A DNA stretch of 64,000 nucleotides from Rhodothermales bacterium. Its GTDB lineage: Bacteria > Bacteroidota > Rhodothermia > Rhodothermales > Bin80. The translations under genes were made by a program, and so were the position numbers. Shown piece by piece: positions 6,403 to 52,892 of the stretch. Numbering within the stretch: position 1 is the first letter of the stretch; every line of letters begins with the position of its first letter. The DNA is taken from the NCBI GenBank assembly GCA_958296045.1, contig CATQHT010000001.1, positions 965,395 to 1,029,394 on the forward strand, written 5' to 3'. The notes below the pieces were generated by a model. The model was not told the DNA's origin, made no database searches, and saw nothing but the letters and a program-made list of their open reading frames with translations.

Positions 6403-6703
6403 GGAGCTATGCTGTCATTTAGTGTCCATCCGCAGTCAGGATGTTCTCCGTTCGTTCTCCTGGAACGGTACTGCTTGAAGTCGGTGAGATGCTCATCGTG
6501 CCCACCATGCCTGATGAATACTGTAGGCAACCGTTTCCGTGCCTCGCCCCCTACCCTATTCGGCGAACACATCCAAGGTTGCCGCGTCTCAAGACCAAAT
6601 GGGAGCCCTGGAATTACTGGCGCCAGCCGCAAGAAGTGCGGAGAAGGGATGATATTCGCGGGTGTATCTGATCACAGTTGAAGCAGCAGCAATATTTGTG
6701 CGC

Positions 6704-9694
6704 ATGACAATTCCATCAGTATTCGACGTTTGTCAGCCGCGCGAGGATGTGGTTAAAGCTAGGCTGCGTGAGGCGGACTTTGCCGCTGATCTGGCTCAGG
6801 TACTTCGAGGCAATGGCGGAGGCACGTACAGTGATGCGGGGCGCTTTTTTACGAACACGTATCCTACGGGCGGGTTGCGCAATGTTCTGACCAATGTCTG
6901 TAGCCGCCTAGGCGGCGCGGGGCACCATGTCGCAGCGGTGTTTCGCTTGGACACGACCTATGGCGGCGGGAAGACTCACGCACTCATTGCTCTTGTACAT
7001 GCCGCGAAAGGCATGCAGGGAGTACAGAATGTGCGCGATTTTATTGCGGACCCAGCACTCGTGCCGCGCGCACGAGTCCGCGTAGCTGCTTTCGACGGCG
7101 AAAACGCTGATCCAGCCAATGGCCGCGATATGGGTCAGGGAGTCCGTGCGCATACTCCTTGGGGGGAGTTAGCCATTCAGTTGGATGGGCTGCGTGGTTA
7201 CAGACGAGTCGAACGCAGCGACAAGGGAGGCCATGCCCCGGGTGCCGCGACGATGCGGGAGCTATTCGGTTCTGATCCCACCCTGATTCTCCTAGACGAG
7301 CTTGCTGTTTATGTACGCAAGGTGCAGCGCTTAGGCCAAGCTGCCGATCAGGTTACCGCGTTTCTTACGGCGTTGATCAAGGCGGTCGAAGGCGCGCCCA
7401 AGGCCGCTCTGGTATATACTTTAGCGGTAGGTAAAGACGGAAAAGCGCAGGATGCTTATAAGGAGGAAAACGAGCTTTTGGCGCTGCGCATGGCCGAGCT
7501 TGGCAAGGTGTCGGCACGAGCCGCCACGCTCTTGAATCCTACCAGAGAGGACGAGACGGTGCACGTTCTCAAGCGCCGCCTTTTCAGGTCTGTGGACGAA
7601 GAGTGCGTGGAGAAGGTCGTGGCGGCGTATTACAAAAGGTGGGATGCCAATTTACGGCAGCTGCCGCATAGCCTTTCGCTGGGGAAGGCGAAAGAAACAA
7701 TGCGGGAGACCTATCCTTTTCATCCCGAGTTGCTGAGTACCCTGACCGGAAAATTATCTACTCTAAGCAACTTTCAGCGGGTGCGTGGCATGCTGCGCCT
7801 TTTGGCTGGTACGATCGCACATTTGTGGCAGCAGCGTCCAGCCGATGCCACAGCGATTCATGTGCACCACATTGATGTAGGCTACCACCACATCCGCCAG
7901 GAGCTTACAACAAGGCTGGAGCAGAGTCGCTTTGATCCGGCGATAGATCACGACATCGGAATCAGCGGCACGGATGACGCATTAGCATCGTCGCTCGATC
8001 GCAGGTATCATGCACGTCAGCCGCCTGTGGCATCATATGTGGCGCGCACGATATTTATGCATACGCTGGCGTACCCGGACCGTTTGAGCGGCATTGCCGC
8101 GGACCATCTGATGTACAGCATTATTAGTCCAGGGCTGGATGTGGGTTACGCGGACCAAGCACGCACTCGCTTTACGCAGGAATCCGCATACCTCGATGAT
8201 CGGCCGGGAGTACCGCTGCGCTTTCAGGCCGAGGCCAACCTGAGCCAGATTATTCGGCGCGAAGCTGAACGTGTGGATGATGCGGAGGCCACTGCTCATC
8301 TGCGCGATCTGATCCGGGATACCTACAAGGCGGGGCCATTCAGAGGTGTATGCTTTCCAGGTGGTCCATACGACGTCCCCGACGACGCTTCCAAGAAGCC
8401 AGTGCTAGTGATTCTGCATTATGATGTCGGGGCGGTCGGTAGATCGGTGGAGACGGTTCCTTCCTTTGTTCAGCAGCTATACCAGCAAAAGGGGTCTGGT
8501 GGACAGTTCACCCGTGAGCTTCGCAACAACTTGGTGTTCGTGGTGGCAGATAAGGCGCAAAAGCCTCCGATGCATTGGCAGGTACGCCGCCATTTAGCTT
8601 TGCGCGCTCTCAGGAGTAAGGGGCGAATCAATGACTTTGAGCCGTACCAGCAGGAGAAGATTCGCGAGCTTGAAGGCAAGTCGGGCTTGGAGGCGGCTAC
8701 GGCTATTCAGCATTGCTATCGGCATGTGTTTTACCCGTCAGCTACGCCTTTGGAGCGGGCATCGGTGACGCTGGCGCACACGTCGATCGATCTCCCGTCT
8801 TCATCTGATCGTCCAGGAACCGGGCAGAAGATTGTTGCTCGGACTCTGAAGAATTTGAATAAGTTGCAAGAGGCTGGTGATCCGCCGCAGTCGCCGACAT
8901 TCGTTCGCGACAGGACACAGCTCAAGCTGGATGGCCGGATGACCACGGGAGCGCTGCGCGATGAGTTTCGCCGCAATCCTGTCCTCCCGATGCTGTTAAG
9001 CGAAGGGGTTTTTGAGGACTGCATACGACTGGGCATTAAGGAGGGCATTTTTGTTTATCGTGCGGGCGACCTTGTTGTAGGTCAAGGGGATCCTCCTATT
9101 GTCACTATTGACATAGATGCCCAGGCGGAGGTATTCACCGCTGAAAGCGCCAGGAGGCGGGGATTCTGGCCGCGAGAGGATGTGCCGCCAGAGCCGCCAG
9201 AGCCGCGGCCACCAGGGCCAGGGCCACCTCCAGGACCACCCGTCCGCAAGGCAATGGTTGTGAAGGAAGGCCTCCTGGAGGTTGCCCTCAGGGCTGCTTT
9301 CGAGGATGCACGGCACGAAAAGTTCGAGTCCATATGTAAGCTTACGCTGAACATCTATGACGCTCGAGATGGCTTCGCGTTGATGATGCAGGCGAAGCGC
9401 GTTACCGAGGCAACGCCGTCCATTGCTATCAAGGGTGAGTACGGGACCGACGACGGAAGCGTACTCAAAGTAGAATATGACGGCACTATGAGGGAGGCGG
9501 AACTCATTCGCGAGTTCTTGATGCGCCAGATTCGCTCCGCCAGGGAACACGATTTGCAGGTCACTATTTCGCTCCAATTCGCCAAGGATGTATCAGCAGC
9601 CAAGGATACCGCGGCCCACATTATCAAGAAGCTTACCCCGATCGGCGGGAGCATGGCGGAGGTCAGCGTGGAGCTACACCAGAGAGTGTCGTGA
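6704..9694 (+). CDS. DUF499-type P-loop ATPase (BrxC-like family), defence-associated
   Basis: N-terminus FDVCQPREDV...ADFAADLAQVLRG and P-loop context LDTTYGGGKTHALIALVHAAKG match what I know of DUF499. A Pro-rich linker PPEPPEPRPPGPGPPPGPP sits at ~9185-9245. The stop overlaps the next start (GTGA). ATG 6704 is preferred over the listed 6662 start. Confidence 0.8.
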   Translation: MTIPSVFDVCQPREDVVKARLREADFAADLAQVLRGNGGGTYSDAGRFFTNTYPTGGLRNVLTNVCSRLGGAGHHVAAVFRLDTTYGGGKTHALIALVHAAKGMQGVQNVRDFIADPALVPRARVRVAAFDGENADPANGRDMGQGVRAHTPWGELAIQLDGLRGYRRVERSDKGGHAPGAATMRELFGSDPTLILLDELAVYVRKVQRLGQAADQVTAFLTALIKAVEGAPKAALVYTLAVGKDGKAQDAYKEENELLALRMAELGKVSARAATLLNPTREDETVHVLKRRLFRSVDEECVEKVVAAYYKRWDANLRQLPHSLSLGKAKETMRETYPFHPELLSTLTGKLSTLSNFQRVRGMLRLLAGTIAHLWQQRPADATAIHVHHIDVGYHHIRQELTTRLEQSRFDPAIDHDIGISGTDDALASSLDRRYHARQPPVASYVARTIFMHTLAYPDRLSGIAADHLMYSIISPGLDVGYADQARTRFTQESAYLDDRPGVPLRFQAEANLSQIIRREAERVDDAEATAHLRDLIRDTYKAGPFRGVCFPGGPYDVPDDASKKPVLVILHYDVGAVGRSVETVPSFVQQLYQQKGSGGQFTRELRNNLVFVVADKAQKPPMHWQVRRHLALRALRSKGRINDFEPYQQEKIRELEGKSGLEAATAIQHCYRHVFYPSATPLERASVTLAHTSIDLPSSSDRPGTGQKIVARTLKNLNKLQEAGDPPQSPTFVRDRTQLKLDGRMTTGALRDEFRRNPVLPMLLSEGVFEDCIRLGIKEGIFVYRAGDLVVGQGDPPIVTIDIDAQAEVFTAESARRRGFWPREDVPPEPPEPRPPGPGPPPGPPVRKAMVVKEGLLEVALRAAFEDARHEKFESICKLTLNIYDARDGFALMMQAKRVTEATPSIAIKGEYGTDDGSVLKVEYDGTMREAELIREFLMRQIRSAREHDLQVTISLQFAKDVSAAKDTAAHIIKKLTPIGGSMAEVSVELHQRVS

Positions 9695-10167
9695 TCGAGT
9701 CAACCCCCGCAGAGGAGACCAGAGCGGCGCCGAAATATGAGTTGCGCGTGCACACTGCGGGCACGCGTACATTTGAGGTATGGCAGGTTTCATCACCTGC
9801 CACCCCGCTTATTACGAAGCCCGTGCGTATTGGGCGGCTCAAGGGGCGTAACCTTGATCTGGTAGAGCACCGCATCTTGCGAGCGCTGCAGGACGAAGGG
9901 ATCCGGTTTCAAGTTCAGAAAAAGAGTCGTACCTCGAGGGTTGAGCTATCGGAGCCACTGGCTGTGATGCTGGGGCTCTTGTTCAGGACTCTGGCACCAA
10001 TGCGCAGTCGAGCTAACATAATTGCTGTTACCAAGGGAATCGATACGATGGAGATGGTGGAAGCGGCATACTGGCTTGGGATGGCCATGCACCGCAGTCA
10101 CCCGAGGCGTGTCCTGATGGCGCTACGATGCATACTGACCCCACCAAAGAAGAAGAGAAATGGATGA
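9691..10167 (+). CDS. small hypothetical protein in the position of the accessory (DUF3780-like?) gene of DUF499/DUF1156 loci
   Basis: 158-aa ORF joined to both neighbours by 4-nt overlaps (GTGA 9691-9694, ATGA 10164-10167). It has a basic C-terminus PPKKKRNG. Family not verifiable by eye. Confidence 0.55.
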   Translation: MIESTPAEETRAAPKYELRVHTAGTRTFEVWQVSSPATPLITKPVRIGRLKGRNLDLVEHRILRALQDEGIRFQVQKKSRTSRVELSEPLAVMLGLLFRTLAPMRSRANIIAVTKGIDTMEMVEAAYWLGMAMHRSHPRRVLMALRCILTPPKKKRNG

Positions 10168-13104
10168 ATGAATTTGTCTTGTCCGATACGCGCCTGATTG
10201 AGCGCTGGCTGCCTATTGCAGCCTTGGGTGAGGAATCGGCACGGGAGCGCCGCTCCATGACGGCCCTCCCTCCAACGTACTACCTGCATGTCTGGTGGGC
10301 TCGAAGGCCGCTTGTGGCTTCGCGAGCTGCGCTGTTGGCCTCTGTCCTGCCAGCAGATGCGGATCGCGATCGCTTTATGCACATGCTTGGCATCCACGGT
10401 GATCCGGTCGGGGCGCGCATAAGGATCAACAAGGCTAGGCAGTTGGGCAAGCGATTCAAAGGGCAAGCATATCCGTATCGGCGCGCATTCACGTATGTGC
10501 CGACTGACTCAGATGCCAACTGGGTGTTTGAGAATCTGGGAGTGGAGTTGAGCGACATCTCGGCGCTTGATCCGACGGCAGGCGGTGGGAGCATCCCATT
10601 CGAGGCTAGGAGGTTGGGGATGTCAACGCTTGCTAACGATTTAAACCCGGTATCTGCCCTGATCATGGATGCGACCATCAACTGGCCGCTCAAATACGGC
10701 GATGCCGTGGTGCAGGAGTACAGTAATCTGGCAAATCGGTTCGTGCAGGCTCGAGAAGTACATTTGGCTCCACTGTTCCCGAGTGAGGCACTGGAAGACA
10801 CGATTGCTACCAACTACCTCTGGGCACACACGGTTATCTGTCCCTACTGCTCAGGTCTGGTGCCGCTGTCGCCGAATTGGCGGCTGAATTCCAGCGGAAT
10901 AGGGATTAGGCTAAGGCCGCACTTAGGATCAGGCCCAGGCAGTATGGACCGTGTATGCGCATTTGAGGTAGTGAACAACGAGACCGATCAATCCGCGGGC
11001 ACGGTCAAGCGCGGTGTGGGCACCTGCCCTTTTCCAGACTGCGAGCGCGTAATCAGCGGTAATATAATCAAGAGCCAGGCACAGGCTGGTAGGATGGGCG
11101 AACAGCTTTATGCCGTGATCACCAAGACGCGCATTAGAGTTACGTTGAAGTCGGGACGCCGGGGTAAGGACAAGTGGAAGCGTGGTTTTCGTGCGCCATG
11201 TCCAGAGGATGACAATAGCGCGGCGGTATCAGCTATGCTGGACCAGAAGCTGCCCGAATGGGAGGTGCGCGATATTGTGCCCAGCGAGCGATTTCCGTCT
11301 GATGGTAACGATCTTCGACCGATCACTTACGGCATGCCACTGTGGCGTGATCTCTTTTCCCCCCGTCAGTTGCTTTGCCATGGCACCAGCGTGGAGGTGT
11401 ACCGGGAGATGCTCTCAGCCGATCGCGCCCGGGGCACCCTCAGCGAGCTGCAGGAGGCCGCCTACGGGTACCTAGCCCTTGCCTTGGACAAGCTCTGTTA
11501 CTTCAACTCCCGTATGTGCGTGTGGAATTCGTACAGGAGTGTAATCGGCAACACGTTTGCACGGCACGACATACTCATTCAAGTGGTCCTATGTGGAGAT
11601 GGCCCCGTTGGTCGCCGGGATAGGCTACGACTGGGCTGTTCGTCAGACCGCCAAATGCATCAGGGAGCTGGTGGCCCTCATCCGCCCGAGTAGCAATGGG
11701 TCTCCGACCAGCGGAATGTTCGAGTCCGAGGCAGACGAGTCAAGTCGACTGACACCGGTCATCGTATCGTGTAAGAGTGGCGATAACCTGGACCATGTGG
11801 CAGACGGCAGCATCGACGTAATCGTGATGGACCCGCCCTACTACGACAACGTCATGTATGCGGAGCTTTCGGACTTCTTCTACGTCTGGCTCAAACGCAC
11901 CGCGGGATACGTATATCCCCTGCTCTTTCGCAGGCATCTGACGGACAAGGACAGCGAGGCGGTCGCCAACCCGGCCAGATTCGCTGGCCAGAAAGGCGCC
12001 CGCAAGCTCGCCAGCCAAGACTACCGAGAGCGGATGGCATCCATCTTCGCCGAATGTCACCGTACGCTCAAGGCAGACGGCATCATGACCGTCATGTTTA
12101 CACACAAGGCGAGTGGTGCATGGGATGCGTTGACTCAGGCATTGATGGAGGCGGGCTTCACCATCACCGCTTCTTGGCCGATCAACACAGAGGCAGCCTC
12201 GAGCCTGCACATACGGGACAAGGCGGCGGCTCGCAGCACGATTTTTCTTGTTTGCCGTCTGCGCAAGGCGCAGCAGGATGCCAGGGGGTACTACTGGGAA
12301 GATGTGGAGCCGCGCGTGAGCCAAGCGGTGCGCGACCGAATCAGTGATTTTCGTGAGGCGGGCATCGCAGGAGTGGACCTGTATTTGGCCTCGTTCGGGC
12401 CAGCGCTGGGAGAATTTTCTCGCCACTGGCCACTCAGAAGAGGAACACCCAAGAGTCCGCCACACGGAGATAAGAGCGCTGATGCAGATCCGTACGCAAC
12501 CACGCCGGATGATGCACTTCAAGCCGCCAGGCGCGAGGTAAAGCAGTGGCGCATGGACCAACTGCTGACATTGAAGGGCAAGGAGGAACTGGATTCGCCT
12601 ACGGCTTTCTATGTCCTGGCGTGGGATACCTTCCGGGCACCCAAATTCTCGTACGACGAAGCGCTCTTGCTAGCGCATGCCGTGGGTGCGAATCTGGACC
12701 GCGACGTGAAGGGGCGCACCGCCATTAAGCAAGGTAGCTACCTGGTCCTCCTTGACAGCAGTCAGCGTGCGCGCCGCGGCACGCTCGGGCCGCCTGACGG
12801 CAAGCGCGGCATGATAGACGCAATCCATCACGCCGCCAACGTCGCACGCACCACATCACTGTCCGACGCGAAAGAGCTGCTGCAGAAAGACGTCAACCTG
12901 CTCGAGGAACGCGGCTTTCAGGTCGCGCTGCAGGCAGTGCTGGAGGTGCTGCCGCCGTCAGCCAAATTCACGGGTATAGACCTTAAGGGCGCCCTGAAAT
13001 CGGCTGGCACCGACTTTGAAACGCTGCTTGATCTTGCCCGCCTTTACCTGCCAGAGGTGATACGCCGGCCCAAGCAGCTTAGGATGTTTGATGAAGTGAC
13101 ATGA
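10164..13104 (+). pseudogene. DUF1156-type Zn-ribbon adenine-specific DNA methyltransferase, interrupted by a +1 frameshift (two ORFs 10128-11693 and 11557-13104)
   Basis: N-terminal half: WWARRPLVASRAA (DUF1156 hallmark), AdoMet motif LDPTAGGGSIPFEARRLG, and Cys pairs CPYCSG / CPFPDC. C-terminal half, in another frame: catalytic VIVMDPPYYDN. The two ORFs overlap at 11557-11693. The sequence reads through sensibly (..GNTFARHD|YSFKWSYVEMAP..) if one nt near 11571 is removed. Confidence 0.8.
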
Positions 13105-16100
13105 GCAGGCTCAGAGACACGGAATGGGGGTATCAGTATACACCAGACAGCTGTGACATTATTCAAGAATTCTACGTCCCCGTGCTCAGGCGGGCACAGC
13201 TGTACCAGAGAACTGCTGGGTATTTCAGCGCCAAAGCACTGGCGCTGGCGGCAAGAGGCATCGAAGGACTAATAAAGAAAGACGGGCGCATGCAGCTCAT
13301 TGTCGGCTGTACACTGGAAAAGCGGGAGGTTGAGGCCATCCAGCGCGGCGAAGAGCTGCGCGCCTGCCTAGAGCGACGGGCAATACGGCTGCCACTTAAT
13401 CCCGGTGACAATTCCATGCACGGCGCGCTCGAACTGCTGTCGTGGATGGTGGCAAACCGATACCTCGAAGTCAAGGTCGCCGTGCCCTGTGACAGCCGAC
13501 GCCAGCCCGTGCCCGGCGACTTGTACCACGAAAAGACCGGCATCATCGCCGACAGTTACGGCGACATAATTGGCTGGACCGGGAGCCTCAATGAGACGGC
13601 AGCCGGCTGGGGGCACAACTGGGAGCGCATTAGTGTTTCAATCAGTTGGGAAGGCTGCAGAGAGCGCAAGCGGGTTCGAGAATTCCAGGCTGACTTTGAA
13701 AGGCAGTGGGCTGACCGGACATCTCACCTTCTGGTTATGGACATGCCGGAAGTCATGCGACGGGACCTGATGCGCTTTGAGCCCAAAAGTCACCTGCCTG
13801 ACCGCATCGATCCCAAGAAGACGTTGCGACTAGACCCGCAGGTAATCGCCAACTGGCGCGCAAAGGTTTGGGCATTCATCGGGCGGGCGCCCCGGATGCC
13901 CGCTGGCGGAAAGCACATGGGCGAAGAGACGTGTCCCATCACGCCATGGCCACACCAGAGCCTTGCATTCGGTCGCATGTACGATCACTGGCCCCCAAGA
14001 CTGCTAATCGCCGACGAAGTGGGGCTCGGAAAAACCATCCAGGCTGGACTGCTGCTGCGCCAAGCATGGCTGTCCCGACGCGCCCGCCGAATACTCATCC
14101 TTGCCCCAAAGGCCCTTCTTCGGCAGTGGCAGATTGAGTTGCGGGAAAAGTTCAACCTTAGCTGGCCCATCTACGACGGTTCACACCTGGTCTGGTACGA
14201 TCCACGCGGCGAACAGGCTGGCACAAGAAAGGCCGTCAGTCGCAACTCCTGGCACCAGGAACCCGCCGTGTTGGCATCCAGCCAACTTGTTCGGCGCAAG
14301 GACCGGGCTGAAGAGGTTTGCAACAACGCCACACCTTGGGACCTGATCGTACTTGACGAAGCACATCACGCGCGTCGACGTAGCGCCGGGTCCAAGCAAG
14401 AAGGCCCACCCAACCTGTTACTGGCGCTCATGCAAAAGCTGAAAGAGCGCTGCGAAGGTTTGGTACTACTTACGGCTACACCCATGCAGATAGCGCCTAT
14501 TGAGGTCTGGGACCTGCTCAACCTTCTGGGAATGCCACTTGAATGGAGTGAGGAGAGCTTTCTGAAGTTCTTCCGCAGCGCTAACTCAGATGATCCATCA
14601 CCCGAGTTGCTGATTGGCCTAGCCCCCCTCTTTAGAGCCGTAGAGCGGGAGTTTGGCAAGATGCAGGACGCTAATGCTCATGGTAACCATAAGGTGTCTC
14701 GTATCAGGGTTAGCAGAGTGCAGCGGGCACTGAGAGATACGGCCACCATCCCTACGAAGCGACTGAATGCTAAAGAAAGACAGGTTGCCTTGCAGGTGAT
14801 GTGTGCGAATACGCCGGTGCGCCGACTGATTTCGCGGCACACCAGGAAACTGCTTCGCTCCTATCACAAAGAGGGACGCATAGACTCGCCCATTGCCGAT
14901 CGTCAGGTCGAGGATAACTTTCTGGAGTTATCCAAAGGTGAGTCGCAACTGTATTCCATGGTAGAGCAATACATTCGCAGAGTCTACAAGCGAGCTACCG
15001 GGAAACACCGATCTGTAGTCGGACTGGTGATGGTCATCTACCGGCGCCGCCTCGCAAGCAGCCTTCGAGCGCTGCGCGAGACACTTGCCAAGCGGCAAGC
15101 ATCACTGGAAGCAGGCAAGTACCACGTTGTAGGAGATGATTTGTCTCATGTGGAGAGCGTTACGGAAGATGATCCAGATGGCCCAGACGAACTGGTAGCC
15201 ATGGAACACGATCCACTCCGATTTGAGGAAGTCAGCACCATCCGCGACTTACTGCATCATGTGGACTCCCTGCCTCCAGACACCAAAGCACGCGCGCTAT
15301 GCGCCACAATTACAGCGCTGCGCCAGGAGGATTACGAGCAGGTGATGGTGTTCACGCAGTACACCGATACCATGGACTTTCTGCGAGATGAATTGACCAC
15401 CTCGCTCACCCTGCGCATCATGTGCTTCTCGGGACGAGGAGGCGAAGTCCCTGACTTTGGTGGGTCCTGGCATACCATCAAGCGCGACGAGGCAAAGGAG
15501 AAATTCAGACGCTATGAAGCTGATGTGTTGCTTTGCACCGAGGCGGCCGCTGAGGGACTCAACTTTCAGTTCTGCGGTGCGCTCATCAATTACGACATGC
15601 CGTGGAATCCGATGAAGGTGGAACAGCGTATCGGGCGGATCGATCGTGTCGGACAAAAGCATCAAACAGTCAGAATCGTTAACCTTCTCTACAAGGGCAC
15701 CATTGAGTCCGATGTGTACATTGCACTCCGCTCCCGCATCAAGCTCTTCGAGGACATCGTAGGGCACCTGCAGCCGATCCTGTCAAGGGTTGCCCGCACA
15801 ATCGACAAGAGGGTGCTTGAAGGCGGGAAACCGGACGGTTTTGATGCTGAGGTATTTGCAGAGGAAGCAGAAGACCTACTCGATCTGGAGTCCATGACCG
15901 CTGCTCCTTTGAGCGTGCCCGAGCGTTTACCGTCGCCAGTCACGATGGATGACCTCGACCATATTCTTCGCATGCCCGAGCTGCTGCCAATGGGCTATGA
16001 GGTAAGGCGGCTTGGACCCCGCGAATACGATTTGAAGTATCCTGACGCGGAGCAACGGGTGCGGATTACTACGAATCCCCAGCACTATGAGCAGCATTCG

Positions 16101-16292
16101 GATAATGTGCAATTGTGGTCTCCCGGTAATCTGGCCTTTGACAATGCTGTTCGCGCAACCGAGAGGCCGAATGCTGACCCCACGTTCACCAGTCTGAGTG
16201 ACTTGCTCGAAGCCTACCGGAGCGAAGTATTCAGCACGCCGGCTGCTGGTGTCACGCCAATCGCGAACGGTCTGATTGCATCGACACTTTAG
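13101..16292 (+). CDS. PLD (HKD) nuclease-domain / SNF2-family helicase fusion protein
   Basis: Single HKD motif YHEKTGIIAD...WTGSLNETA in the N-terminal ~200 aa. SNF2 motifs follow: LIADEVGLGKTIQAG (I), LIVLDEAHHARR (II), LLLTATPMQ (III) and VEQRIGRIDRVGQ (VI). The ATGA overlap with the methylase gene is at 13101-13104. Confidence 0.85.
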   Translation: MSRLRDTEWGYQYTPDSCDIIQEFYVPVLRRAQLYQRTAGYFSAKALALAARGIEGLIKKDGRMQLIVGCTLEKREVEAIQRGEELRACLERRAIRLPLNPGDNSMHGALELLSWMVANRYLEVKVAVPCDSRRQPVPGDLYHEKTGIIADSYGDIIGWTGSLNETAAGWGHNWERISVSISWEGCRERKRVREFQADFERQWADRTSHLLVMDMPEVMRRDLMRFEPKSHLPDRIDPKKTLRLDPQVIANWRAKVWAFIGRAPRMPAGGKHMGEETCPITPWPHQSLAFGRMYDHWPPRLLIADEVGLGKTIQAGLLLRQAWLSRRARRILILAPKALLRQWQIELREKFNLSWPIYDGSHLVWYDPRGEQAGTRKAVSRNSWHQEPAVLASSQLVRRKDRAEEVCNNATPWDLIVLDEAHHARRRSAGSKQEGPPNLLLALMQKLKERCEGLVLLTATPMQIAPIEVWDLLNLLGMPLEWSEESFLKFFRSANSDDPSPELLIGLAPLFRAVEREFGKMQDANAHGNHKVSRIRVSRVQRALRDTATIPTKRLNAKERQVALQVMCANTPVRRLISRHTRKLLRSYHKEGRIDSPIADRQVEDNFLELSKGESQLYSMVEQYIRRVYKRATGKHRSVVGLVMVIYRRRLASSLRALRETLAKRQASLEAGKYHVVGDDLSHVESVTEDDPDGPDELVAMEHDPLRFEEVSTIRDLLHHVDSLPPDTKARALCATITALRQEDYEQVMVFTQYTDTMDFLRDELTTSLTLRIMCFSGRGGEVPDFGGSWHTIKRDEAKEKFRRYEADVLLCTEAAAEGLNFQFCGALINYDMPWNPMKVEQRIGRIDRVGQKHQTVRIVNLLYKGTIESDVYIALRSRIKLFEDIVGHLQPILSRVARTIDKRVLEGGKPDGFDAEVFAEEAEDLLDLESMTAAPLSVPERLPSPVTMDDLDHILRMPELLPMGYEVRRLGPREYDLKYPDAEQRVRITTNPQHYEQHSDNVQLWSPGNLAFDNAVRATERPNADPTFTSLSDLLEAYRSEVFSTPAAGVTPIANGLIASTL

Positions 16293-16386: not shown

Positions 16387-17676
16387 ATGATTTCGTTATT
16401 AGCCATTGCCGACGCTCATATCGGGCGTTATCCTTCTAGGGTACCGCGCGATCAGAAGGAATACTCCATCTCGGAAGTCTGGATGGAATCCATCGATTAT
16501 GCCATTGAGCATGGCGTCCATGCCGTTGTGCTTGCAGGCGACATCATCGACACCGCGAACAGGTACTTTGAAGCCTTCGGTCCCCTGCGCAGAGGGGTAA
16601 CCAAGCTCACTAACGCAGGCATCCCCGTATTCGCAGTCGCGGGTAACCATGACTACAATGTGCTGCCCCGCCTAGCCGACGACATGGGCCGAGAACGCTT
16701 CTGCCTCCTCGGGCGCGGTGGTAAATGGGAAACTGTCCCACTACAAGTCGATAGCCAGGTGGTAGCACAGATCGTGGGATGGTCCTTTCCCAGTGAAGAA
16801 TGCCGAACGTCACCGCTGGACACGTTTCCTGGAGTCTCTTCGGAGGAGCCCTTGATCGGCCTAATTCATGGTGACCTGGATGCCAGAGATTCCCATTATG
16901 CACCGCTCGCGCTGCCCGATCTGCAGCGGCAATCTGTAGCTGTGTGGATTCTCGGCCATATACATACATCCAGATACGTTGCCACCGGTGGCGTGCCCGT
17001 CCTGTACCCAGGTTCGCTGCAAGCGCTTGACCCAGGTGAACCTAGTGACCACGGACCATGGTTGGTGGAAATTGATGCGGGTGGGCACGTGGAAGCAAAG
17101 CAATTACCTATAGCCACGGTCCGGTACGTCACGTTAATCATAGATCTGACCGATGTCTCAAGTGAGTCCGAAGCTCAGTCGCTGATCACTGAGAAAGTTA
17201 CACTCGATTCGGATCGCCTCAGCCAGAACTATCCGTCACTGCGCCATGCCTCCTATCGCCTTACCCTGGTGGGTGCAACGCCCGCACACAGGGCGCTGTC
17301 GCTCACGGATTGGGCCAACATTGGATATCTGGATATCGAGCACGGCGACCTCCAAACCTCCGTGGATCGCGTGTTCGTGGAAACTGTGCCAGCCCGCAAC
17401 CTGAAGGACATCGCTCGGTTGAGCGATCCGCCTGCAATGGTCGCCGGATGGGTCCTCGAGTTGGATAACATGCAAGAAGATCTGGATCTCTCCCCCGATT
17501 GCCAAGACCTGCTTCAGCAGGCCACCGAAGAAGCCAACAAGGTCATTTCTCAGTCGAGATACCGGCAGTTGCAGGGGACCTCGATACATAGCAGCGACGT
17601 TGCCCGCCTGCTCGTCTCTAAGGGCAGACTCCTGGTTGACACCCTAATGGCTCAGAAAGACGATTCTCATGAGTAA
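16387..17676 (+). CDS. Mre11/SbcD-like calcineurin-type metallophosphoesterase (YhaO-like)
   Basis: Phosphoesterase motifs in canonical order: IADAHIG, LAGDIID, VAGNHDY, LIHGD, LGHIHT. An 8-nt overlap (ATGAGTAA) joins it to the downstream ATPase gene. Confidence 0.8.
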   Translation: MISLLAIADAHIGRYPSRVPRDQKEYSISEVWMESIDYAIEHGVHAVVLAGDIIDTANRYFEAFGPLRRGVTKLTNAGIPVFAVAGNHDYNVLPRLADDMGRERFCLLGRGGKWETVPLQVDSQVVAQIVGWSFPSEECRTSPLDTFPGVSSEEPLIGLIHGDLDARDSHYAPLALPDLQRQSVAVWILGHIHTSRYVATGGVPVLYPGSLQALDPGEPSDHGPWLVEIDAGGHVEAKQLPIATVRYVTLIIDLTDVSSESEAQSLITEKVTLDSDRLSQNYPSLRHASYRLTLVGATPAHRALSLTDWANIGYLDIEHGDLQTSVDRVFVETVPARNLKDIARLSDPPAMVAGWVLELDNMQEDLDLSPDCQDLLQQATEEANKVISQSRYRQLQGTSIHSSDVARLLVSKGRLLVDTLMAQKDDSHE

Positions 17677-20491
17677 ACGAATTGTATTCAAGAACATCTC
17701 AGTAGACCAGATGTACGGCCGGAGCTTTGGTAGCCTCGAGCTCAAAGCGCTAACAGAACATATCAACGTTGTACATGGAGTCAATGCATCGGGCAAGTCA
17801 ACGCTAGCGCAGGCGCTGCAATGCGTGATGCTGCTGCAAAATGCAAAGGCCATAAAGCCAAACGTAGACGCTACCCTCGAAACAGGCGACGGCCAATTGG
17901 ATGTGGAAGTCAGGAAATCAAGACGCTTTTGCCGCCTGAATGGCGAAGATATCCAGTGGAACCCGGAACTGATAAGGCCCAAGAGCTACCACATTTCGCT
18001 GCACGCCCTGTTGGGCGCCGAAGCGGGTGATAGCTCGTTCGCGGAGGAAATTATGAAGGAAGCCTCTGGAGGATTTGACGTCCGCAAAGCTGCAATGGAG
18101 CTCGCCTTTGAACAGCTCACCAGCAATTTGACCGCCGGGCACAATAGTGCCAAAAGAGTCAAGAACGCCTCCAACCGATTAAAGGAGGTCGACCGGAGAC
18201 AAAAGAAGCTGGCAAGCGACCGGAAACGGCTGGATCGGCTGCATGAAGAGCAACATACTGCTGCGTCAGCTGCGAACCACGTCAGCCTGTTCACTAAAGC
18301 CCTGGCATTTCACGAAGCACGACGCACGCATAAGGATGCTCGCCAAAGTGTCGAGGCCCTCCCCAAAGTGCTGCAAAAGGTTGACGTGGATCAGCTGCCT
18401 GACAAGCTGCAGAAGATTCGCGACGACATAACGCGCTTAGAGGCCGAGATAGCGCAGCGCGAGCGCGCGGCCACAGAGGCCATGCGACACATCAGCGCCA
18501 GTTCACTGCCCGAATCTGGACTGCCCGAGGGCTTCACGGAGAAAGTCAGCAAGGAGATACAGCGACTTGCGGACGTCGACGGCCGGATAGAGACCATAAC
18601 GGAATCTCTGGCGGAATTCAGGAGGAAAGCCGAAAAAGCCTGGCAGGGGCTTTCTGGCGGCGCAGATTCTCAGCAGAATGCTCCACAGTTCAACCGTAAA
18701 TCTGTGGAACGTCTCGGGTCCGTTATTCGCCGAGCATTTGACGCGGCAGCGGAGAAGGCAGCGCTTAGAGCGAAAGAAAAAGCGTTTCAGGTCGAAGGGG
18801 GTGAGGCGCTTGAGCAGACTGAGAAAACACTTCGTAGAGCACTAGAGTCTCTTGTTGATTGGCTTCGCGCACCGACACATACTCTAGGTAGGGGGCGCAT
18901 GGTCCGTGTTGTTTTGGGCATCGCGGCAACATTGTCTCTGGTAAGCGCGTGGCTTGCAGGCGTGGATACCGTGCGCGGGTGGCCAGGGATTGCAGCGGCC
19001 CTGCTTATCGCATTGGCCTACTACCGGCTCAGCATGGGCGAAAGAACGTATATGCGCCAGAAAGCGGAGGTAGAAAGCAAAATTGAGCGTCCAAGTCTGG
19101 ACCTGGAACTTCCAGCCACGTGGACAAACGACACCGTGGGAAAGCTGCTTGACGACGTGCTGGCTCGCCTTGCATCCATCAATGTTGACAAAAAGAAGCT
19201 CGACAGATTGACGTTCCTTACCGAGGATCGCGAATCTAAAGAGCCTGAGTGGCAGCGGGTACAGGAGGAAGTTCGTCGCATCGAGGAAGCAACCGGCCTT
19301 CAGGGACTCTCGGAAGAAACGCTATTTTACGTGATAGAGCGCATTCTCGACTTCCAGCGCGCCAAGGATGAGGTAAGCGGACTAGAAGCAAGACTTGCGA
19401 AAGCGCAGGGAATGCAGACGCGCCATTTGGCCTACATCAATGCTTCCTTAGCACCGTACGGTCTTGCCGAAGTCGATTCACCTGCGGAGGCCGCAGCGGC
19501 ATTGGAAGACCTCCGCACCGCCAGTCAGAAACTGCAGGGCCACCTCAAGGATCTCGCCGGCATTGAGCGTGAGAAAGAAGCCCTAACATCGCAGCGCGCG
19601 CGGCTAATCGCTAAGCGTCAGCAACTCTTTGCAGAGCTCGACCTGGATGACCAGGATCGCGAGTCCCTGAATGTGCTGGTTCGGCAGAACAAAAAACTAC
19701 GCATACGACGCGAAAAGCTGGGCGAGGCGAAGACACTGTTGGATGACAAGGAGCGCGTGCTTCGCCGATCCCCAGGGTATTCTGAGGACCTAAAGCGCGC
19801 GAACACCGCCGAGCTTGAGGCTGAACTGGAAACGTTTACGACTCTGGCCGCCAAGAAAGACGAAATTCAGCGCGAAATCACCGTGATCACCACCCAGGTG
19901 AAATCCTTGGAGGAAGGCAGTGCACTGGAGAAAGCTAAGGCTGAGTTGGATGAGGCACGGGCGAGATTAAGAATGGATCGTGACGCCAAAGTAGCCAATG
20001 CAGTTGGTGGTGTCCTGATCGAACAGCTCCTGACGTACATCCACGGGCAAGGCATGCCGAGGGTCTTCAGGAAGGCCAAGAATAATTTCCTGCTCGTCAC
20101 CAATGGGCGCTATGAGCTGCGCCTTAAAGGAAACGTGTTTCACGCATATGATACCGAACAGCGACGTACTCAGAATATCCAGGAGCTATCTAGTGCAACC
20201 CGCGTGCAGCTGCTGCTTTGTGTGAGGATCGCATTTGTGGAATCCCAGGAAACAGAATACCGGTTTCCGCTAACGCTGGATGAGGCCTTGGCGAATAGCG
20301 ACGATCAACGTGCTAGCACGGTGATAGAAACTATTGCGCGGCTCGCGATGCAGCGACAGGTGATCTACTTCACCGCGCAGGAAGACGAAGTTCAGAAATG
20401 GAAGAATCATGCAGGTGATGTGCCGGTCAAGTTGATTCGGCTGAACGCCTCAACTCCGGGTAGCGGCATATTCGCGGGCGCACAGACGTAG
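17669..20491 (+). CDS. Rad50/SbcC-like SMC-type ATPase with long coiled coils (YhaN-like)
   Basis: Walker A VHGVNASGKSTLAQAL at the N-terminus. About 700 aa of E/K/R/L/A/Q-rich sequence follows. The C-terminal signature-like ELSSATRVQLLL and Walker B PLTLDEALANSD complete a split ABC head. A central hydrophobic hairpin sits at ~aa 411-455. Confidence 0.8.
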   Translation: MSKRIVFKNISVDQMYGRSFGSLELKALTEHINVVHGVNASGKSTLAQALQCVMLLQNAKAIKPNVDATLETGDGQLDVEVRKSRRFCRLNGEDIQWNPELIRPKSYHISLHALLGAEAGDSSFAEEIMKEASGGFDVRKAAMELAFEQLTSNLTAGHNSAKRVKNASNRLKEVDRRQKKLASDRKRLDRLHEEQHTAASAANHVSLFTKALAFHEARRTHKDARQSVEALPKVLQKVDVDQLPDKLQKIRDDITRLEAEIAQRERAATEAMRHISASSLPESGLPEGFTEKVSKEIQRLADVDGRIETITESLAEFRRKAEKAWQGLSGGADSQQNAPQFNRKSVERLGSVIRRAFDAAAEKAALRAKEKAFQVEGGEALEQTEKTLRRALESLVDWLRAPTHTLGRGRMVRVVLGIAATLSLVSAWLAGVDTVRGWPGIAAALLIALAYYRLSMGERTYMRQKAEVESKIERPSLDLELPATWTNDTVGKLLDDVLARLASINVDKKKLDRLTFLTEDRESKEPEWQRVQEEVRRIEEATGLQGLSEETLFYVIERILDFQRAKDEVSGLEARLAKAQGMQTRHLAYINASLAPYGLAEVDSPAEAAAALEDLRTASQKLQGHLKDLAGIEREKEALTSQRARLIAKRQQLFAELDLDDQDRESLNVLVRQNKKLRIRREKLGEAKTLLDDKERVLRRSPGYSEDLKRANTAELEAELETFTTLAAKKDEIQREITVITTQVKSLEEGSALEKAKAELDEARARLRMDRDAKVANAVGGVLIEQLLTYIHGQGMPRVFRKAKNNFLLVTNGRYELRLKGNVFHAYDTEQRRTQNIQELSSATRVQLLLCVRIAFVESQETEYRFPLTLDEALANSDDQRASTVIETIARLAMQRQVIYFTAQEDEVQKWKNHAGDVPVKLIRLNASTPGSGIFAGAQT

Positions 20492-20775: not shown

Positions 20776-21036
20776 ATGACGCTGGTACTCACGCATGTAG
20801 GACTCAAACTGAAGACCATCCCCAACCACCAACACCTGCCCAAGCTCCAAAAGGCGTTTATGGATGCCAGGACCCAAATCCCAGAATCCCCCTCTAGCCC
20901 TCTTTCCACTAATTTTGGCCCACCCCCCGCCATCTTTGACCAACTGGTTCACAATGCGCACCACATTTCACTCAAGGGAGAATCCATGCACAAAACACAC
21001 GCCCTGCGGAGCATCAAACCCTACGACCTGGCATGA
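20776..21036 (+). pseudogene. decayed 3' remnant of an IS21-family istB-like ATPase gene (left copy)
   Basis: ..AIFDQLVHNAHHISLKGESMHK.. resembles the IstB C-terminal consensus (AILDRLvHnahri.LkGeSmRk). It is homologous to the better-preserved inverted copy at 22889-23280. Confidence 0.55.
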
Positions 21037-21137
21037 CACATACACATGTGTGCATAAGCCGATTTCGTGCCCCTGGCGCAAGACTTAGGGTGGCGCGCTT
21101 GAAGCCAGAATTGGTGGCGCAGTGGAGCGGAATAGGC
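20934..21137 (+). repeat. left arm of ~205-bp inverted repeat (IS end remnant)
   Basis: Aligns by eye at roughly 75-80% identity with the reverse complement of 22785-22990. Example: GCGCTTGAAGCCAGAATTGGTGGCGC versus GCGCTTGAAGCTGGAATTGGTGGCGC. Confidence 0.75.
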
Positions 21138-21242
21138 AGCGAGTACCTGCCAGTGAAGTTTGAGGTGGCCAACAGCAGAATTCCTTCAAAGCTGGCCCGA
21201 ATCTGGGACAACGCCGAGACGAACACATACCGGATTATCGAG

Positions 21243-22139
21243 ATGGACACACTGCCCTTAATCGCAGCCATGCAACTCGAAGGAGTCGGACCCAAGAAGT
21301 TGCTCAACGTTGTAGATGACTTGAGTGACGGGAAAAGTCAGTTCGCTAAAGTGGCCAATAGGCATTGGAGATGTTCCGTATATGCGGCTGACAGAGCTTG
21401 GGAACAGGCGCAGCGACTCTTGGAGATGTGCGAAAAACGAGATATCCTGCCGATAGCCTTTTCGAACCAAGACCAGTACCCTGAGCGGTTGCATGTGCTT
21501 CGGGTAGCGAATGGCAAAAATGGTGCCCGCGACGATAGACCGCCCGTCGTGTACGTCAAAGGGAACATTGATGCTGTGCACCGACCGAAACCCGTTGTGG
21601 CTATCGTGGGCACTAGGAAACCCACAGACCGGGGACATCGAAGTGCCTTTAAGCTTGGAAGAATCGCAGCCACTTATGGCGTGCCCGTCGTAAGCGGACT
21701 AGCGTACGGGTGTGATCAGCGCGCGCACGAAGGCTGTATAGAAAACAAAGGCACTGCCATAGCCGTGCTTGCACATGGGCTGGACACAATTTATCCGTCT
21801 AAAAACAAAGGGCTTGCTAAGGCAATTCTAGACATGGGGGGCTGCTGGATCAGCGAATTCCCCCCAGGAACGCCTGTGCAGAAGTGGAGCTTCGTGCAAC
21901 GCGACCGGCTTCAGAGTGCGCTTTCTGACGTTGTAGTTATCGCTCAGACCGGCGTTAAGGGTGGAACGCAACACACGATTCGCTTTGCCAGAGAGCAGGG
22001 AAGGCAGCTCGCCTGTGTTGTGCCCGAAGCAGAGGCTAACCATAGAGTCGAAGAAGGCAATCGTAAACTGCTGCAGGACAAGAACGTCGAGCGGCTGGCT
22101 GTGCCCCGAGACTTGAAACGAATGCTGGACAGGCTTTAG
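21243..22139 (+). CDS. DprA/Smf-like (SLOG/Rossmann) DNA-processing protein family member
   Basis: Core VAIVGTRKPTDRGHRSAFKLGRIAATYGVPVVSGLAYGCDQRAHEGCI and AVLAHGLDTIYPSKN match DprA blocks. An N-terminal HhH-like LIAAMQLEGVGPKKLLNVV is present. The listed start at 21033 lies inside the IS-derived repeat, so ATG 21243 (or GTG 21153) is preferred. Confidence 0.75.
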   Translation: MDTLPLIAAMQLEGVGPKKLLNVVDDLSDGKSQFAKVANRHWRCSVYAADRAWEQAQRLLEMCEKRDILPIAFSNQDQYPERLHVLRVANGKNGARDDRPPVVYVKGNIDAVHRPKPVVAIVGTRKPTDRGHRSAFKLGRIAATYGVPVVSGLAYGCDQRAHEGCIENKGTAIAVLAHGLDTIYPSKNKGLAKAILDMGGCWISEFPPGTPVQKWSFVQRDRLQSALSDVVVIAQTGVKGGTQHTIRFAREQGRQLACVVPEAEANHRVEEGNRKLLQDKNVERLAVPRDLKRMLDRL

Positions 22140-22213
22140 GCACGCGTGGGCGCAGCAAGTGTTGTGCCCCGAATGCTACTGCTTGATCGCGTGACCCATC
22201 CATCCCGAGGCAG

Positions 22214-22711
22214 ATGTTGCTTTTTGATTTTGATCAGGTTCTGGTGGACACCGAACCAATCTCGTACTTGCGAAGGGCCAGAGACTGGTCGACTTACAGG
22301 CGAGAGGTTACCAAGCTGCATCCTTGCGATGGCATCAATGCGCTCATTCTCACAGCGGCAGAGTTGGGGCACATGATGGCAATCGTGACCCAGAGTCCTA
22401 GTTTCGTGCCGAAGATATTCGTTCGGAAAGAACGCTGGCCGATCGACATCGTCGTGGGTTGGCACGACTTCAGGCGCCGCAAGCCGCACCCATTGTGCCT
22501 GCAACAAGCTATGAAACGCGCCCAAGCCCAGCCAAAGGCATGTTATCACATTGGTGATCTACCAGCCGATACGGCGGCCTCGAAGAATGCGGGCGTGTAT
22601 TCCATTGGCGCAGGTTGGGCCGCGATCGATCCCGCAGCGCTTCGCAGGTCACAGCCTGACTACTATTTTGAGACGGTAGAGCAACTGCACCGCTTTATCT
22701 CCGTCTTATAA
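22214..22711 (+). CDS. HAD-superfamily phosphatase/hydrolase
   Basis: HAD motif I LLFDFDQVLVDT (DxD), motif II IVTQSP and motif IV IGDLPADTAASKNAG. Confidence 0.75.
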   Translation: MLLFDFDQVLVDTEPISYLRRARDWSTYRREVTKLHPCDGINALILTAAELGHMMAIVTQSPSFVPKIFVRKERWPIDIVVGWHDFRRRKPHPLCLQQAMKRAQAQPKACYHIGDLPADTAASKNAGVYSIGAGWAAIDPAALRRSQPDYYFETVEQLHRFISVL

Positions 22712-33891: not shown

Positions 33892-34823
33892 CGGGTACGT
33901 CGTAAAAGGAGTGTGGATTGGTCGGTAGCTAGCAGTTCCCTACTCTTATCAGACCGGCGAAGGCACAAGAATTGCATTTGCGGCCACCAAGCAATGCTTC
34001 AGGAATTCCTGCCGGTTCACATAAACCACTGCCTATCCTAGACGTTGCCTGTATCTGCCCCGGTAGTGGTCCATCCTTAGTGGACACGTGGAAGTCCTTA
34101 GTACGCCTTTGTCAGGGACCAACCTCAGGTGCTCCAGCAATCCTGAATTGTCGTGCAGCTAGGCAATGTGTGGCCCATTCACTGGAGCGGTGAAGCACCC
34201 GTGTGACCCCGACGGCGAGCACGATGCGCGCGTCGCGCTCGCCAACCCCGTCCAGCTTGCGTCGGATTGGGCGCACAATTTCGTCGGAATAGGAAACTCT
34301 TGGGTAGACCCACCTAAGAGAATCGGATTGTCGTCGGATTTGCCTACGTGTGGCAGACTTCATGTCGATGCGATCTCCGCGGAGCTCACCTGATGGGGAC
34401 ACGGTTGGACGGTGCGTTATTGAGATTCACCAGCCTTCGTGGTTCTCTTGACCCTGATGCCTGCCTCTATGAAGCGAACCCGCACCATGCCGATCTTAGA
34501 GAATTTATACCCCGCGGGGCATTGCTGCGAAATGCTAACGTTTAGGAAGCAGAGCTGGAATATTCCGTATTGACGCAAGACTCGGGGCAGCGCGCTTGAA
34601 GCGGATCCGTTCGACCGTCGTCTATGCCTGTTCCTACCACCATATAGCAGCCGGGGACAATGCCAGACTCCAGCACAAAGGTAGCCACGCCAACGCAGTC
34701 AGAGCCATTAGCCGCTGTGCCCTACTGCCCGATCTTGCGCGGCAGCCTCGCGCTCGCGCACTCAGTGGGCTTGCAGCCACATGCCTGCCCCAGCGGAACA
34801 GGCTGGACCTGTGCTTGGCTCCC

Positions 34824-35462
34824 TTAGCGCACGAGCGCAAGTGAGGTGCACATGCTCAGCACGTCATCTAGGGCCTTGCGCTCTGCGCTATCGATCGAGA
34901 GGCGATACTTTACGCGCACAGCCACCACGCGCGCCGCGAACCAACACTTGTTGCGTTCTGGGATCCACTTAGCAGCGTCGTAGTGCCGCTTCTTATAACG
35001 GTTCAGATGAGGCTCCGCCAGCGTGAGGTTCAGTATATCTCCAGCAAAAGTCTTGCGCTCCTGCCTCGAACGGGCGCACAGCCCGCTGTCGTGCGCCTCT
35101 GATATAGCCACAATATGCTCAATGTCAGTGTAATACTTGGTTTCAAATCGCTCCCCCGTGTACGGGCTGAATATTGCGCCCAGTGAGGCAATGATGCTGT
35201 CCTCCACGCTCTGGCTGTACTCGTAATCCCCACGATCATAGGGAGCACACCGCTGCTCGGCTGCTAATGTCAGGCTCTTGAGCGCTTCCCGCACGCATGC
35301 CACCTCTTGGAGCGAATCACAGATCTGGCCTTGGCTGGGCATACTCCAGAGCCCCAGCGAGTAGATGGCTGCAAGAACTACCATGCGGAGCGAAAGAACC
35401 CGCGAGCTCCCGATGCGGTAGGGTACTGGGTGGTCCATGACTCGAATGTATCGTTGCCTCAC
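34824..35462 (-). CDS. secreted HNH/His-Me-finger nuclease-like protein (DUF1524-like)
   Basis: Signal-like VVLAAIYSLGLWSMPSQGQ. Block YTGERFETKYYTDIEHIVAISEAHDSG...NLTLAEPHLNRYKK resembles the DUF1524/GmrSD C-terminal nuclease motif. Confidence 0.5.
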   Translation of the reverse strand: MRQRYIRVMDHPVPYRIGSSRVLSLRMVVLAAIYSLGLWSMPSQGQICDSLQEVACVREALKSLTLAAEQRCAPYDRGDYEYSQSVEDSIIASLGAIFSPYTGERFETKYYTDIEHIVAISEAHDSGLCARSRQERKTFAGDILNLTLAEPHLNRYKKRHYDAAKWIPERNKCWFAARVVAVRVKYRLSIDSAERKALDDVLSMCTSLALVR

Positions 35463-36523
35463 ATATCTAGTATACAGCGGCAGACTGACACCCCTATGTC
35501 ACTTCAGGACAGCTTTTTTCTCTCCAGGCTAGTGGACCAGATTGCCTCAATAGAGGTTTAGCGTTTTCTCGGTACATGTGTTGGGGTCTGCATCTTAAGA
35601 GGGCGATCTCGTTGCGCGACATTGTCGGAGGCGCTATGCACCAATTCGGGAGGCCGGGTCATGGCACTGAAAATCCGGGGCACATCAGAAGCGATGTTGC
35701 TCTTGGTCGCACGATATGTGCATGAGGGTCCTTGCCAACTGCGTTTCTGGCGCCGCCAGCGTCCGTAATCGGCGCTGGAATGTCAGGTGCATGAAGGGGA
35801 CCGAAGACATAATGTAACCGTTCCACAGTGTGTGTTGAACGCAGGCCATGTACCGATCTTATGTCCTGACGGGCATCGCTCTGGGGCGCAACAATACTTG
35901 CATGCCGGATCACTCGAAGCAGCTCAACGCGCAGCCGTTGTCTACCTGCTGTTGGTAACCTGCAAGGCATAGACGTCGCCCATAACTGACTCTGAGATGT
36001 GCTAGAGTGCATACCTACGCACACCGCAGGAATTCGCGCGCTGCGGCCCCATCGGTGAACCAAGCGTGAGTGCTCCGCGACCTACCAGGCGCTGCTCCCA
36101 CCCGTAGAGACCTGCCGTACAAGCCCTTTGATACCACTGCTGAGCGCGAGACCTGTACCGAAGTGCCCAGGCACTTAAGTGATCTGTGTTCGTCTACCAC
36201 TAGTGTGCCTTGAGCACCCCATCGGGCCGCTACGCCAGCTGCCTTCGCCCAATAACCCCAGCAAGGTGCGCCGCCAACCGGATGCGCCTATCGTCCGTAA
36301 AACCCGGCATTCCTCGGCCAAGCGTCAGTACAGACACTCAAGAACATCCTGTGCGTCCCACCGGTCCGCGAAAATGCATTCCCATTTCTGAACCTCTAAA
36401 CTGGTACCGTCCACGCTTTGCTCAGCAGTTCGCAAGGGAACCATGCCGCGACGGATCGGCAGGGGTATCTTGTTGCCGGTGTTGTCTCCGACTCTGCGGG
36501 TCAACCGCTAACCAATACATCTG

Positions 36524-40027: not shown

Positions 40028-40115
40028 TCGCCTTGGGGTTCATTGCCGCGTGCGGTACAATCAGCGGCTATCCGCGTATATCCCGCGCACCTTTATGACC
40101 TGATGCGGCCCAATC

Positions 40116-52816: not shown

Positions 52817-52892
<76 letters not shown>

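Follow-up and report, generated by a model that had tools for sequence, protein, structure and literature searches.

The 64,000-nucleotide stretch of Rhodothermales bacterium DNA analyzed here (the window; GenBank assembly GCA_958296045.1, contig CATQHT010000001.1, positions 965,395 to 1,029,394, forward strand) carries at 6662–16292 a four-gene anti-phage operon that is centered on a DUF499 ATPase and is related to BREX, Hma-like or Type-2 BREX-related (BR)-like in composition. Its modification gene is broken. Two overlapping open reading frames (ORFs) together make up a single HmaB-like DUF1156 N6-adenine methyltransferase, and alignment places the cause of the break at one surplus A, at position 11571, between a GAC (Asp) and a TAC (Tyr) codon. 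We infer that this is probably a genuine, evolutionarily recent knockout.

The original prediction, made from the sequence alone, had described two ORFs, 10128–11693 and 11557–13104, sharing 137 nucleotides (nt; 11557–11693), of which the second is read in frame +1 with respect to the first. It had put the S-adenosylmethionine (AdoMet)-binding motif in the first ORF and the catalytic DPPY in the second, and had proposed one extra nucleotide near 11571, at a site that is not a homopolymer. All of this stands, to the exact position. The AdoMet motif, motif I (DPTAGGGSIP), is in the first ORF and DPPY is in the second. When the two raw frames were compared by blastp with 40 full-length homologs, frame 0 aligned until residue 481 (nt 11570), and the downstream frame +1 took up the alignment at nt 11572. 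Across the break the subject residues are adjacent—464 and 465, for example—with no residue lost, and exactly one nucleotide is therefore in surplus. In the DNA of 64 homologs, GAC or GAT is followed directly by TTY or TAY, where the window has GAC-A-TAC. Multiple alignment shows the break to fall within a near-invariant motif, F-x-R-H-D/[FY]-[AS]-F-x-W-S-x-x-E-M-x-P-L (the slash marks the break). The surroundings of the lesion, CGACATACT, are non-repetitive and without a homopolymer, and there is no repeat tract in CACGACATACTC, of the simple-sequence or homopolymer kind that marks the switch site of a phase-variable methyltransferase.

The repaired gene, in which ...GNTFARHD (up to 11570) runs straight on into YSFKWSYVEM... 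(from 11572), has a product with motif I at residue 136, DPPY at residue 556, and the CPYC and CPFPDC elements of a zinc finger in between. AlphaFold2 gave no usable model of this protein (31-sequence alignment, mean pLDDT confidence score 48.8), and no solved structure matched it by sequence. The true start is probably ATG 10164 rather than 10128, because this ATG overlaps the upstream stop codon as ATGA (10164–10167), homologs align with the 10128 ORF only from about residue 14–20, and the public gene call for this part (509 aa) starts at 10164 as well. The N-terminal part comprises the DUF1156 domain, motif I, a motif II-like NDLNP, and the zinc-finger insert. Its authentic sequence ends at nt 11570, and what follows (11571–11693) is a 40-codon out-of-frame tail that closes in TAG. 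The C-terminal part, which aligns with homolog residues 465–979, holds the remainder of the conserved insert, the catalytic motif IV DPPY, and a C-terminal helical region. Its candidate internal starts are TTG 11557, GTG 11593, ATG 11599 and ATG 11716, the last being the start of the public gene call (462 aa).

Naturally split homologs would have cast the lesion in another light, as the original prediction recognized, but the split, as far as these searches reach, is not a feature of the family. The repaired methylase was searched against 5.8 billion proteins and found more than 7000 matches, of which the best 120 are single proteins of ~950–1220 aa, mostly ~980–990 aa, nearly all covering 98% of the query at 62–65% identity; the predicted assignment to DUF1156, with contiguous homologs of ~980 aa, agrees with this and with the Pfam match. 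A scan of GTDB, with one genome per species, turned up 80 related loci at 59–65% identity and no relative closer than 65%. The methylase frame is uninterrupted in 78 of these loci, and in none of the 80 is there a frameshift at the window's site. Among 241 million metagenome records, a degenerate DNA pattern for the motif had no match when one base was inserted between the codons for Asp and Phe/Tyr, and at least 120 when it was not.

In the two remaining loci the methylase is interrupted by a nonsense codon. In L020 (methylase at 10001–12931) a conserved Trp codon at about residue 449, some 20 residues upstream of the window's break, has changed from TGG to TAG. This is an independent lesion, and it parallels the window's, for the methylase is dead and the DUF499 and PLD-SNF2 genes are intact. 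In L009 (10001–12946) a TAA lies at about residue 271 of an otherwise full-length DUF1156 methylase, and the DUF499 frame is broken, too. Other components fare no better: the PLD-SNF2 gene is disrupted in six of the 80 loci (L002, L005, L014, L024, L050 and L080) and the DUF499 gene in four (L005, L007, L009 and L078), by truncations, by insertions of 1.7–2.4 kb, or by frameshifts, and decay of the system is thus common in other genomes.

Three explanations of the lesion share our belief almost entirely, a sliver being left unassigned. That it is a real and recent mutation we consider the likeliest by some way. The site is not a homopolymer; some 30 further genes of the window span the whole of their Pfam profiles, and the frame is broken in none of them; intact genes contain 15 six-base homopolymer runs; and, as just described, the methylase has been knocked out by independent substitutions in two of 80 other genomes, and its partner genes are disrupted in other genomes as well. 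These same facts tell against the surplus A being a consensus or assembly artifact, in which case the organism's gene would be intact (GAC TAC), the system fully functional, and nothing biological would need explaining. Indel errors in long reads concentrate in homopolymers, whereas this site is none, and natural knockouts are no rarer among the relatives than the error rate that the window would imply. We nevertheless treat an artifact as a real possibility, if not the one we favor. A lone 1-nt indel is just what a consensus error classically leaves behind, the gene comes from a single assembly and a 1.05-Mb contig that is probably derived from long reads, and both halves are open, with every catalytic motif kept.

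Several observations weigh against a knockout in the same way. All six window proteins that were looked up are singletons at the 90% cluster level, from this one 1.05-Mb contig, so that the protein collection has neither a sister genome nor a second assembly. Over the 1.5 kb downstream of the lesion the frame stays free of other stops and indels. By a leave-one-out count the methylase has lost nine of 319 strongly conserved columns, which is within the range of intact homologs, and in proportion the losses are greater in the window's own intact PLD-SNF2 (19 of 298) and DUF499 (25 of 270) proteins. Since no decay is detectable beyond the frameshift, the lesion is either recent or an artifact, and the absence of further decay would fit the one as well as the other. 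Non-templated insertion of a single base outside repeats is, moreover, an uncommon spontaneous mutation. Finally, the C-terminal ~230 residues are unusually diverged, although some intact homologs show a similar asymmetry between their N- and C-terminal parts.

This last feature was considered as a sign of an old frameshift, and was rejected. The C-terminal half has lost 17 of 208 invariant columns against three of 145 in the N-terminal half, and the C/N identity ratio is low (z = −2.5). The excess is confined to the last ~230 residues, however, and is similar in the intact L073, L024 and L052. We discount it because intact homologs share the asymmetry and because the leave-one-out count of nine in 319 is unremarkable. 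None of the 199 aligned family members is more divergent in the segment concerned, 12415–13101 (residues ~751–979), where the window's methylase has 62–64% identity to the consensus and the mean is 85–91%; the catalytic core is conserved normally. The divergence could reflect lineage-specific co-evolution, or an early relaxation of constraint.

It might also be that the split gene works as it is, either through a +1 ribosomal shift at GAC-A-UAC that yields a regulated, low level of full-length enzyme, or through two polypeptides that come together as an active methylase. If true, the modification arm of a BREX-related system would be throttled or modular, with one part for recognition, bearing the DUF1156 domain and the insert, and another for catalysis. 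Naturally split methylases do exist, M.AquI being one; both halves here are intact and conserved; a C-terminal fragment begun at TTG 11557 would keep all of the conserved residues; and the frame-0 codon after GAC is AUA. We think it highly improbable nonetheless. There is no slippery or re-pairing sequence at the site, where tRNA-Asp on GAC cannot re-pair on ACA, nor a stop codon or a notably rare codon; at 7.6 per 1000 codons in the genome AUA is not rare, and programmed frameshifting, of the hungry-codon kind included, was rejected on these grounds and because the shift is not conserved. No Shine–Dalgarno (SD)-like element is near: the sole AGGAG precedes TTG 11557 by 17 nt and stands ~30 nt away from the shift. 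Transcriptional slippage would lack the homopolymer that it needs. The arrangement is absent from all 80 genomic relatives, and from the metagenome records in which the in-frame pattern is found. The break lies inside a near-invariant motif, with motifs I and IV of a single Rossmann fold falling on opposite sides of it, and it leaves a 40-residue nonsense tail on the N-terminal fragment.

If the lesion is a true knockout, translation from ATG 10164 would yield 469 authentic residues followed by 40 junk residues, up to the TAG at 11691–11693. This truncated product would contain the AdoMet motif I and the zinc-finger insert and would lack the catalytic DPPY. The C-terminal 510 codons would be translated only upon internal initiation, such as at ATG 11716, which lies 23 nt beyond the stop, and the product would then miss ~48 conserved residues; TTG 11557 has no usable SD sequence. 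With motifs I and IV on separate chains, no complete Rossmann-fold methylase would form and the modification arm would be null. Because these motifs lie on different chains, methyltransferase activity seems to us very unlikely. Ribosomes would also stop ~1.4 kb before the start codon of the PLD-SNF2 gene, to which the methylase gene is joined by an ATGA overlap, and this should lower expression of the effector through loss of coupling, and possibly through Rho polarity along the ~1.4 kb of mRNA left untranslated.

The original prediction reasoned that a dead modification arm beside an open nuclease–helicase gene would, by classical restriction–modification (R-M) logic, be self-toxic. A dead methylase with a live nuclease is indeed toxic by the logic of Type II R-M systems, but this logic is not supported for the DUF499-centered, BREX-related and Hma group, to judge by its studied relatives. 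Escherichia coli strains from which the BREX methylase gene, brxX, has been deleted are viable, and lose both methylation and defense (PMC6326788). One account of BREX has defense requiring that the methylase bind to its DNA sites (PMC11842806). The Halomonas helicase–nuclease HmaA, expressed alone, is not toxic (PMC11232893). And L020, as noted, has the same genotype as the window, a dead methylase with all other genes intact. It seems most likely, by these analogies, that loss of the methylase disarms the system rather than provoking autoimmunity. Disarming is favored because features suggestive of DNA recognition—a nested insert with the zinc finger CPYC...CPFPDC—are seen only in the methylase; domain scans of the other three operon proteins (Pfam, PADLOC) found no recognizable DNA-binding domain. 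By the logic of BREX and of Type I and Type III R-M systems, the methylase would serve also as the site-recognition subunit of the restriction complex, and knocking it out would disarm the whole without self-restriction. Against this it must be said that, for the HKD-helicase (Type-2) branch, the non-toxicity is an argument from analogy.

A pressure of self-restriction could exist all the same, and the lesion be tolerated because the effector is silent, because it is polar-inactivated, or because it is compensated by another methylase that is encoded outside the operon and shares the specificity. Effector disruptions outnumber methylase disruptions in the 80 loci by six to two, a mild asymmetry that fits selection against losing the methylase first, and because of it we keep the R-M-like explanation alive at low weight, although the counts are small. 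The ATGA coupling, too, is such that the frameshift should reduce translation of PLD-SNF2, and R-M-like self-protection by the methylase has been proposed (PMC12839542). Against such a pressure stand the lack of any other methyltransferase in the window's 64 kb, the state of L020, and the BREX and Hma experiments, in which loss of the methylase or expression of the effector alone brought no toxicity. We regard it as unlikely; this estimate supposes the lesion to be real, and is not a fourth share beside the three explanations of the lesion's origin. The outcomes that the original prediction listed—a silent system, self DNA left unrestricted, or a sequencing error—are reasonable ones.

A broken methylase gene in a known kind of defense operon is commonplace, and carries little weight by itself. 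If the lesion is real, the window and L020 offer two natural cases of a BREX-related system whose methylase is null and whose HKD-helicase effector is intact, and the persistence of this genotype would support a need for the methylase in restriction too, and not in modification alone, by the logic of BREX and of Type I and Type III systems.

The operon's other three genes are intact, each aligning contiguously and in a single frame with its homologs (the features are collected in the table below). Neighboring genes overlap by 4 nt at every junction, as GTGA between the DUF499 and DUF7680 genes and as ATGA between DUF7680 and the methylase and between the methylase and PLD-SNF2; such start/stop overlaps are a hallmark of translational coupling across the operon. 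The ATPase has a match to the NCBIfam model DUF499_antiphage (1.1e-61) that falls below the cut-off, and its residues 15–1002 align in one frame with homologs in most of the 80 loci. The small protein occupies the position that DUF3780 has in described Type-2 BR systems, and does not match DUF3780 in Pfam even at E ≤ 10. Its gene stands beside the DUF499 gene in most of the 80 loci, and DUF7680 goes unmentioned in the literature that was searched. The presumed effector matches NCBIfam phospholipD_antiphage (7e-104), conserves the nuclease motif HEK-x5-D...GSLNET, and has the helicase motifs GLGKT and DEAH. Its residues 1–1039 align in one frame with L001 and it aligns end to end with its homologs, so that the gene is as intact as the original prediction held it to be. 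A scan for promoters and terminators was uninformative, giving counts at shuffle expectation.

Features of the operon and its methyltransferase lesion (positions are those of the window)
Feature	Position	Strand	Evidence
DUF499 AAA+ ATPase, HmaC-like; first gene of the operon, intact	6662–9694	+	Pfam DUF499 3.5e-36; PADLOC HmaC 3.4e-92
Small standalone DUF7680 protein, 158 aa	9691–10167	+	Pfam DUF7680 9.5e-37
Methyltransferase, N-terminal part	10164–11693	+	Pfam DUF1156 6.7e-15; PADLOC HmaB 2e-34
Lesion: surplus A	11571	+	Contiguous subject residues; 64 homolog DNAs with GAY directly followed by TWY
Methyltransferase, C-terminal part, frame +1	11572–13104	+	Pfam N6_N4_Mtase; HmaB 1.2e-36 at profile positions 569–781
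HKD(PLD) nuclease–SNF2/Swi2 helicase fusion, 1063 aa; presumed effector, intact	13101–16292	+	Pfam PLDc_2, SNF2-rel_dom, Helicase_C

The related loci vary in what accompanies the core genes. In many of them a three-gene cassette lies between the DUF7680 gene and the methylase (L018: 6710–9969, with similar spacing in many of L003–L079), encoding a DUF262/GmrSD_N protein, an ATPase with AAA_15/AAA_21 and DUF3696 domains, and an unannotated protein of 320 aa. The cassette is absent from the window and from L001, and it echoes the reported tendency of hma operons to host other defense genes. L034, L035 and L058 are orphan methylases, with no partner genes within 10 kb. The 59–65% identical methylases span Rhodothermales, Longimicrobiales, Gamma- and Alphaproteobacteria, Acidobacteriota, Spirochaetia, Binatia, Latescibacterota, Chloroflexota and Poriferihabitaceae (metagenome-assembled genomes), and because of this spread across phyla, extensive horizontal transfer of the operon is implied. 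Several names among the relatives suggest sponge symbionts.

Downstream of the operon, after a gap of 94 nt, a metallophosphoesterase resembling SbcD/Mre11 (429 aa) and an ATPase resembling SbcC/Rad50 (940 aa) are encoded at 16387–20491 by genes that overlap each other by 8 nt; the ATPase has weak PADLOC matches to mad3/mad8, JetC and AriA. These genes were considered as a part of the system and rejected, no homolog of theirs adjoining any of the 80 related loci; the pair is probably a separate module. At 21033–22711 there is a DprA-family protein (PADLOC ShosA, 1.5e-67), followed by a small HAD hydrolase; no ShosT-like partner was recognized. Possibly this is a Shosta-like system in incomplete or variant form, and the region would then be a defense island. 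Some 2.6 kb at 33900–36520 are nearly devoid of long ORFs, and no Rfam match was found there; the sole long ORF (34824–35462, minus strand) encodes 212 aa with an N-terminal hydrophobic segment and a GmrSD_C/DUF1524 nuclease domain. A TnpB/IS605 OrfB gene with a Cas12f-like TNB domain is present at 47439–48731 (minus strand), 4 kb from a tRNA gene (52817–52890, minus strand) that is the window's only one, and the only hit of an Rfam scan. Lastly, a 209-aa ORF at 39605–40234 has no Pfam match and overlaps, by 119 nt and in another frame, a TsaE ORF (TTG 40116; region 39605–40601); the overlap may come from a wrong ORF call or mark a second frame anomaly.

Among known systems, Type 3 BREX, with its BrxC, BrxXI/PglXI and BrxHII, and class 1 DISARM, with the SNF2 protein DrmD, resemble the operon in part. 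The window's helicase best matches the BrxHI/HII and DrmD models (2e-77 and 1e-67), the C-terminal half of the methylase matches PglXI of Type 3 BREX (1.5e-17), and the ATPase matches BrxC weakly. The operon is neither BREX nor DISARM by composition, because Pfam and PADLOC found in it no PglZ, BrxA/B/F or BrxL, and no DrmA, DrmB or separate DrmC. PglZ, which defines the BREX core together with BrxC or PglY, was matched by no protein of the operon or its neighborhood. The DISARM core consists of DrmA (DUF1998 helicase), DrmB (DUF499-like) and DrmC (PLD); no DUF1998 protein was found, and the PLD domain is here fused to the SNF2 helicase.

With the naturally inactivated methyltransferases of R-M and BREX-like loci, among them frameshift and nonsense pseudogenes and phase-variable mod genes, the window shares a single-base indel that kills the modification subunit and leaves the remaining locus open. 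Phase-variable mod genes switch at simple-sequence repeats, and differ in this from the window, where the site has no repeat; reversible switching is therefore not expected.

Hma (HmaA helicase, HmaB methylase, HmaC ATPase) resembles the operon as well. HmaC and HmaB are the best PADLOC matches of the ATPase and of both halves of the methylase, and many of the relatives have extra defense genes embedded in their operons, as reported for hma. The helicases differ. In Halomonas meridiana, the species studied, HmaA has a C-terminal nuclease of the NOV_C/REase type (PMC11232893), whereas the window's helicase has an HKD/PLD nuclease at its N-terminus, and HmaA is only its seventh-best PADLOC match (1.3e-58), behind BrxH, PbeA, PLD_Helicase and DrmD, among others.

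In 2026 the Hma architecture was reclassified as the ‘Type-2 DUF499-centered BREX-related (BR) system’ (PMC12839542). Four components define it: DUF499; a DUF3780 that stands alone and is in the core locus of 98% of taxa; a DUF1156 methylase in which a target-recognition insert is nested; and an HKD-helicase (PMC12839542). Gene order and operon structure match. The window has the AAA+ ATPase with DUF499, a small protein that stands alone, an N6-methyltransferase with DUF1156 and a zinc-finger insert nested in its core, and a Swi2/Snf2 helicase in which an N-terminal HKD endonuclease replaces the TUDOR domain. It differs in that the small protein is DUF7680 rather than DUF3780, that the methylase is frameshifted, and that scores for the NCBIfam ‘antiphage’ equivalogs stand to their cut-offs as 209/1200, 127/1000 and 349/1100. 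Because these scores fall so far below the cut-offs, we take the operon for a divergent sister clade of the Type-2 BR system and not for a textbook member. The architecture itself was known; what is new here is the operon's membership of a DUF7680-bearing variant of this recently described family.

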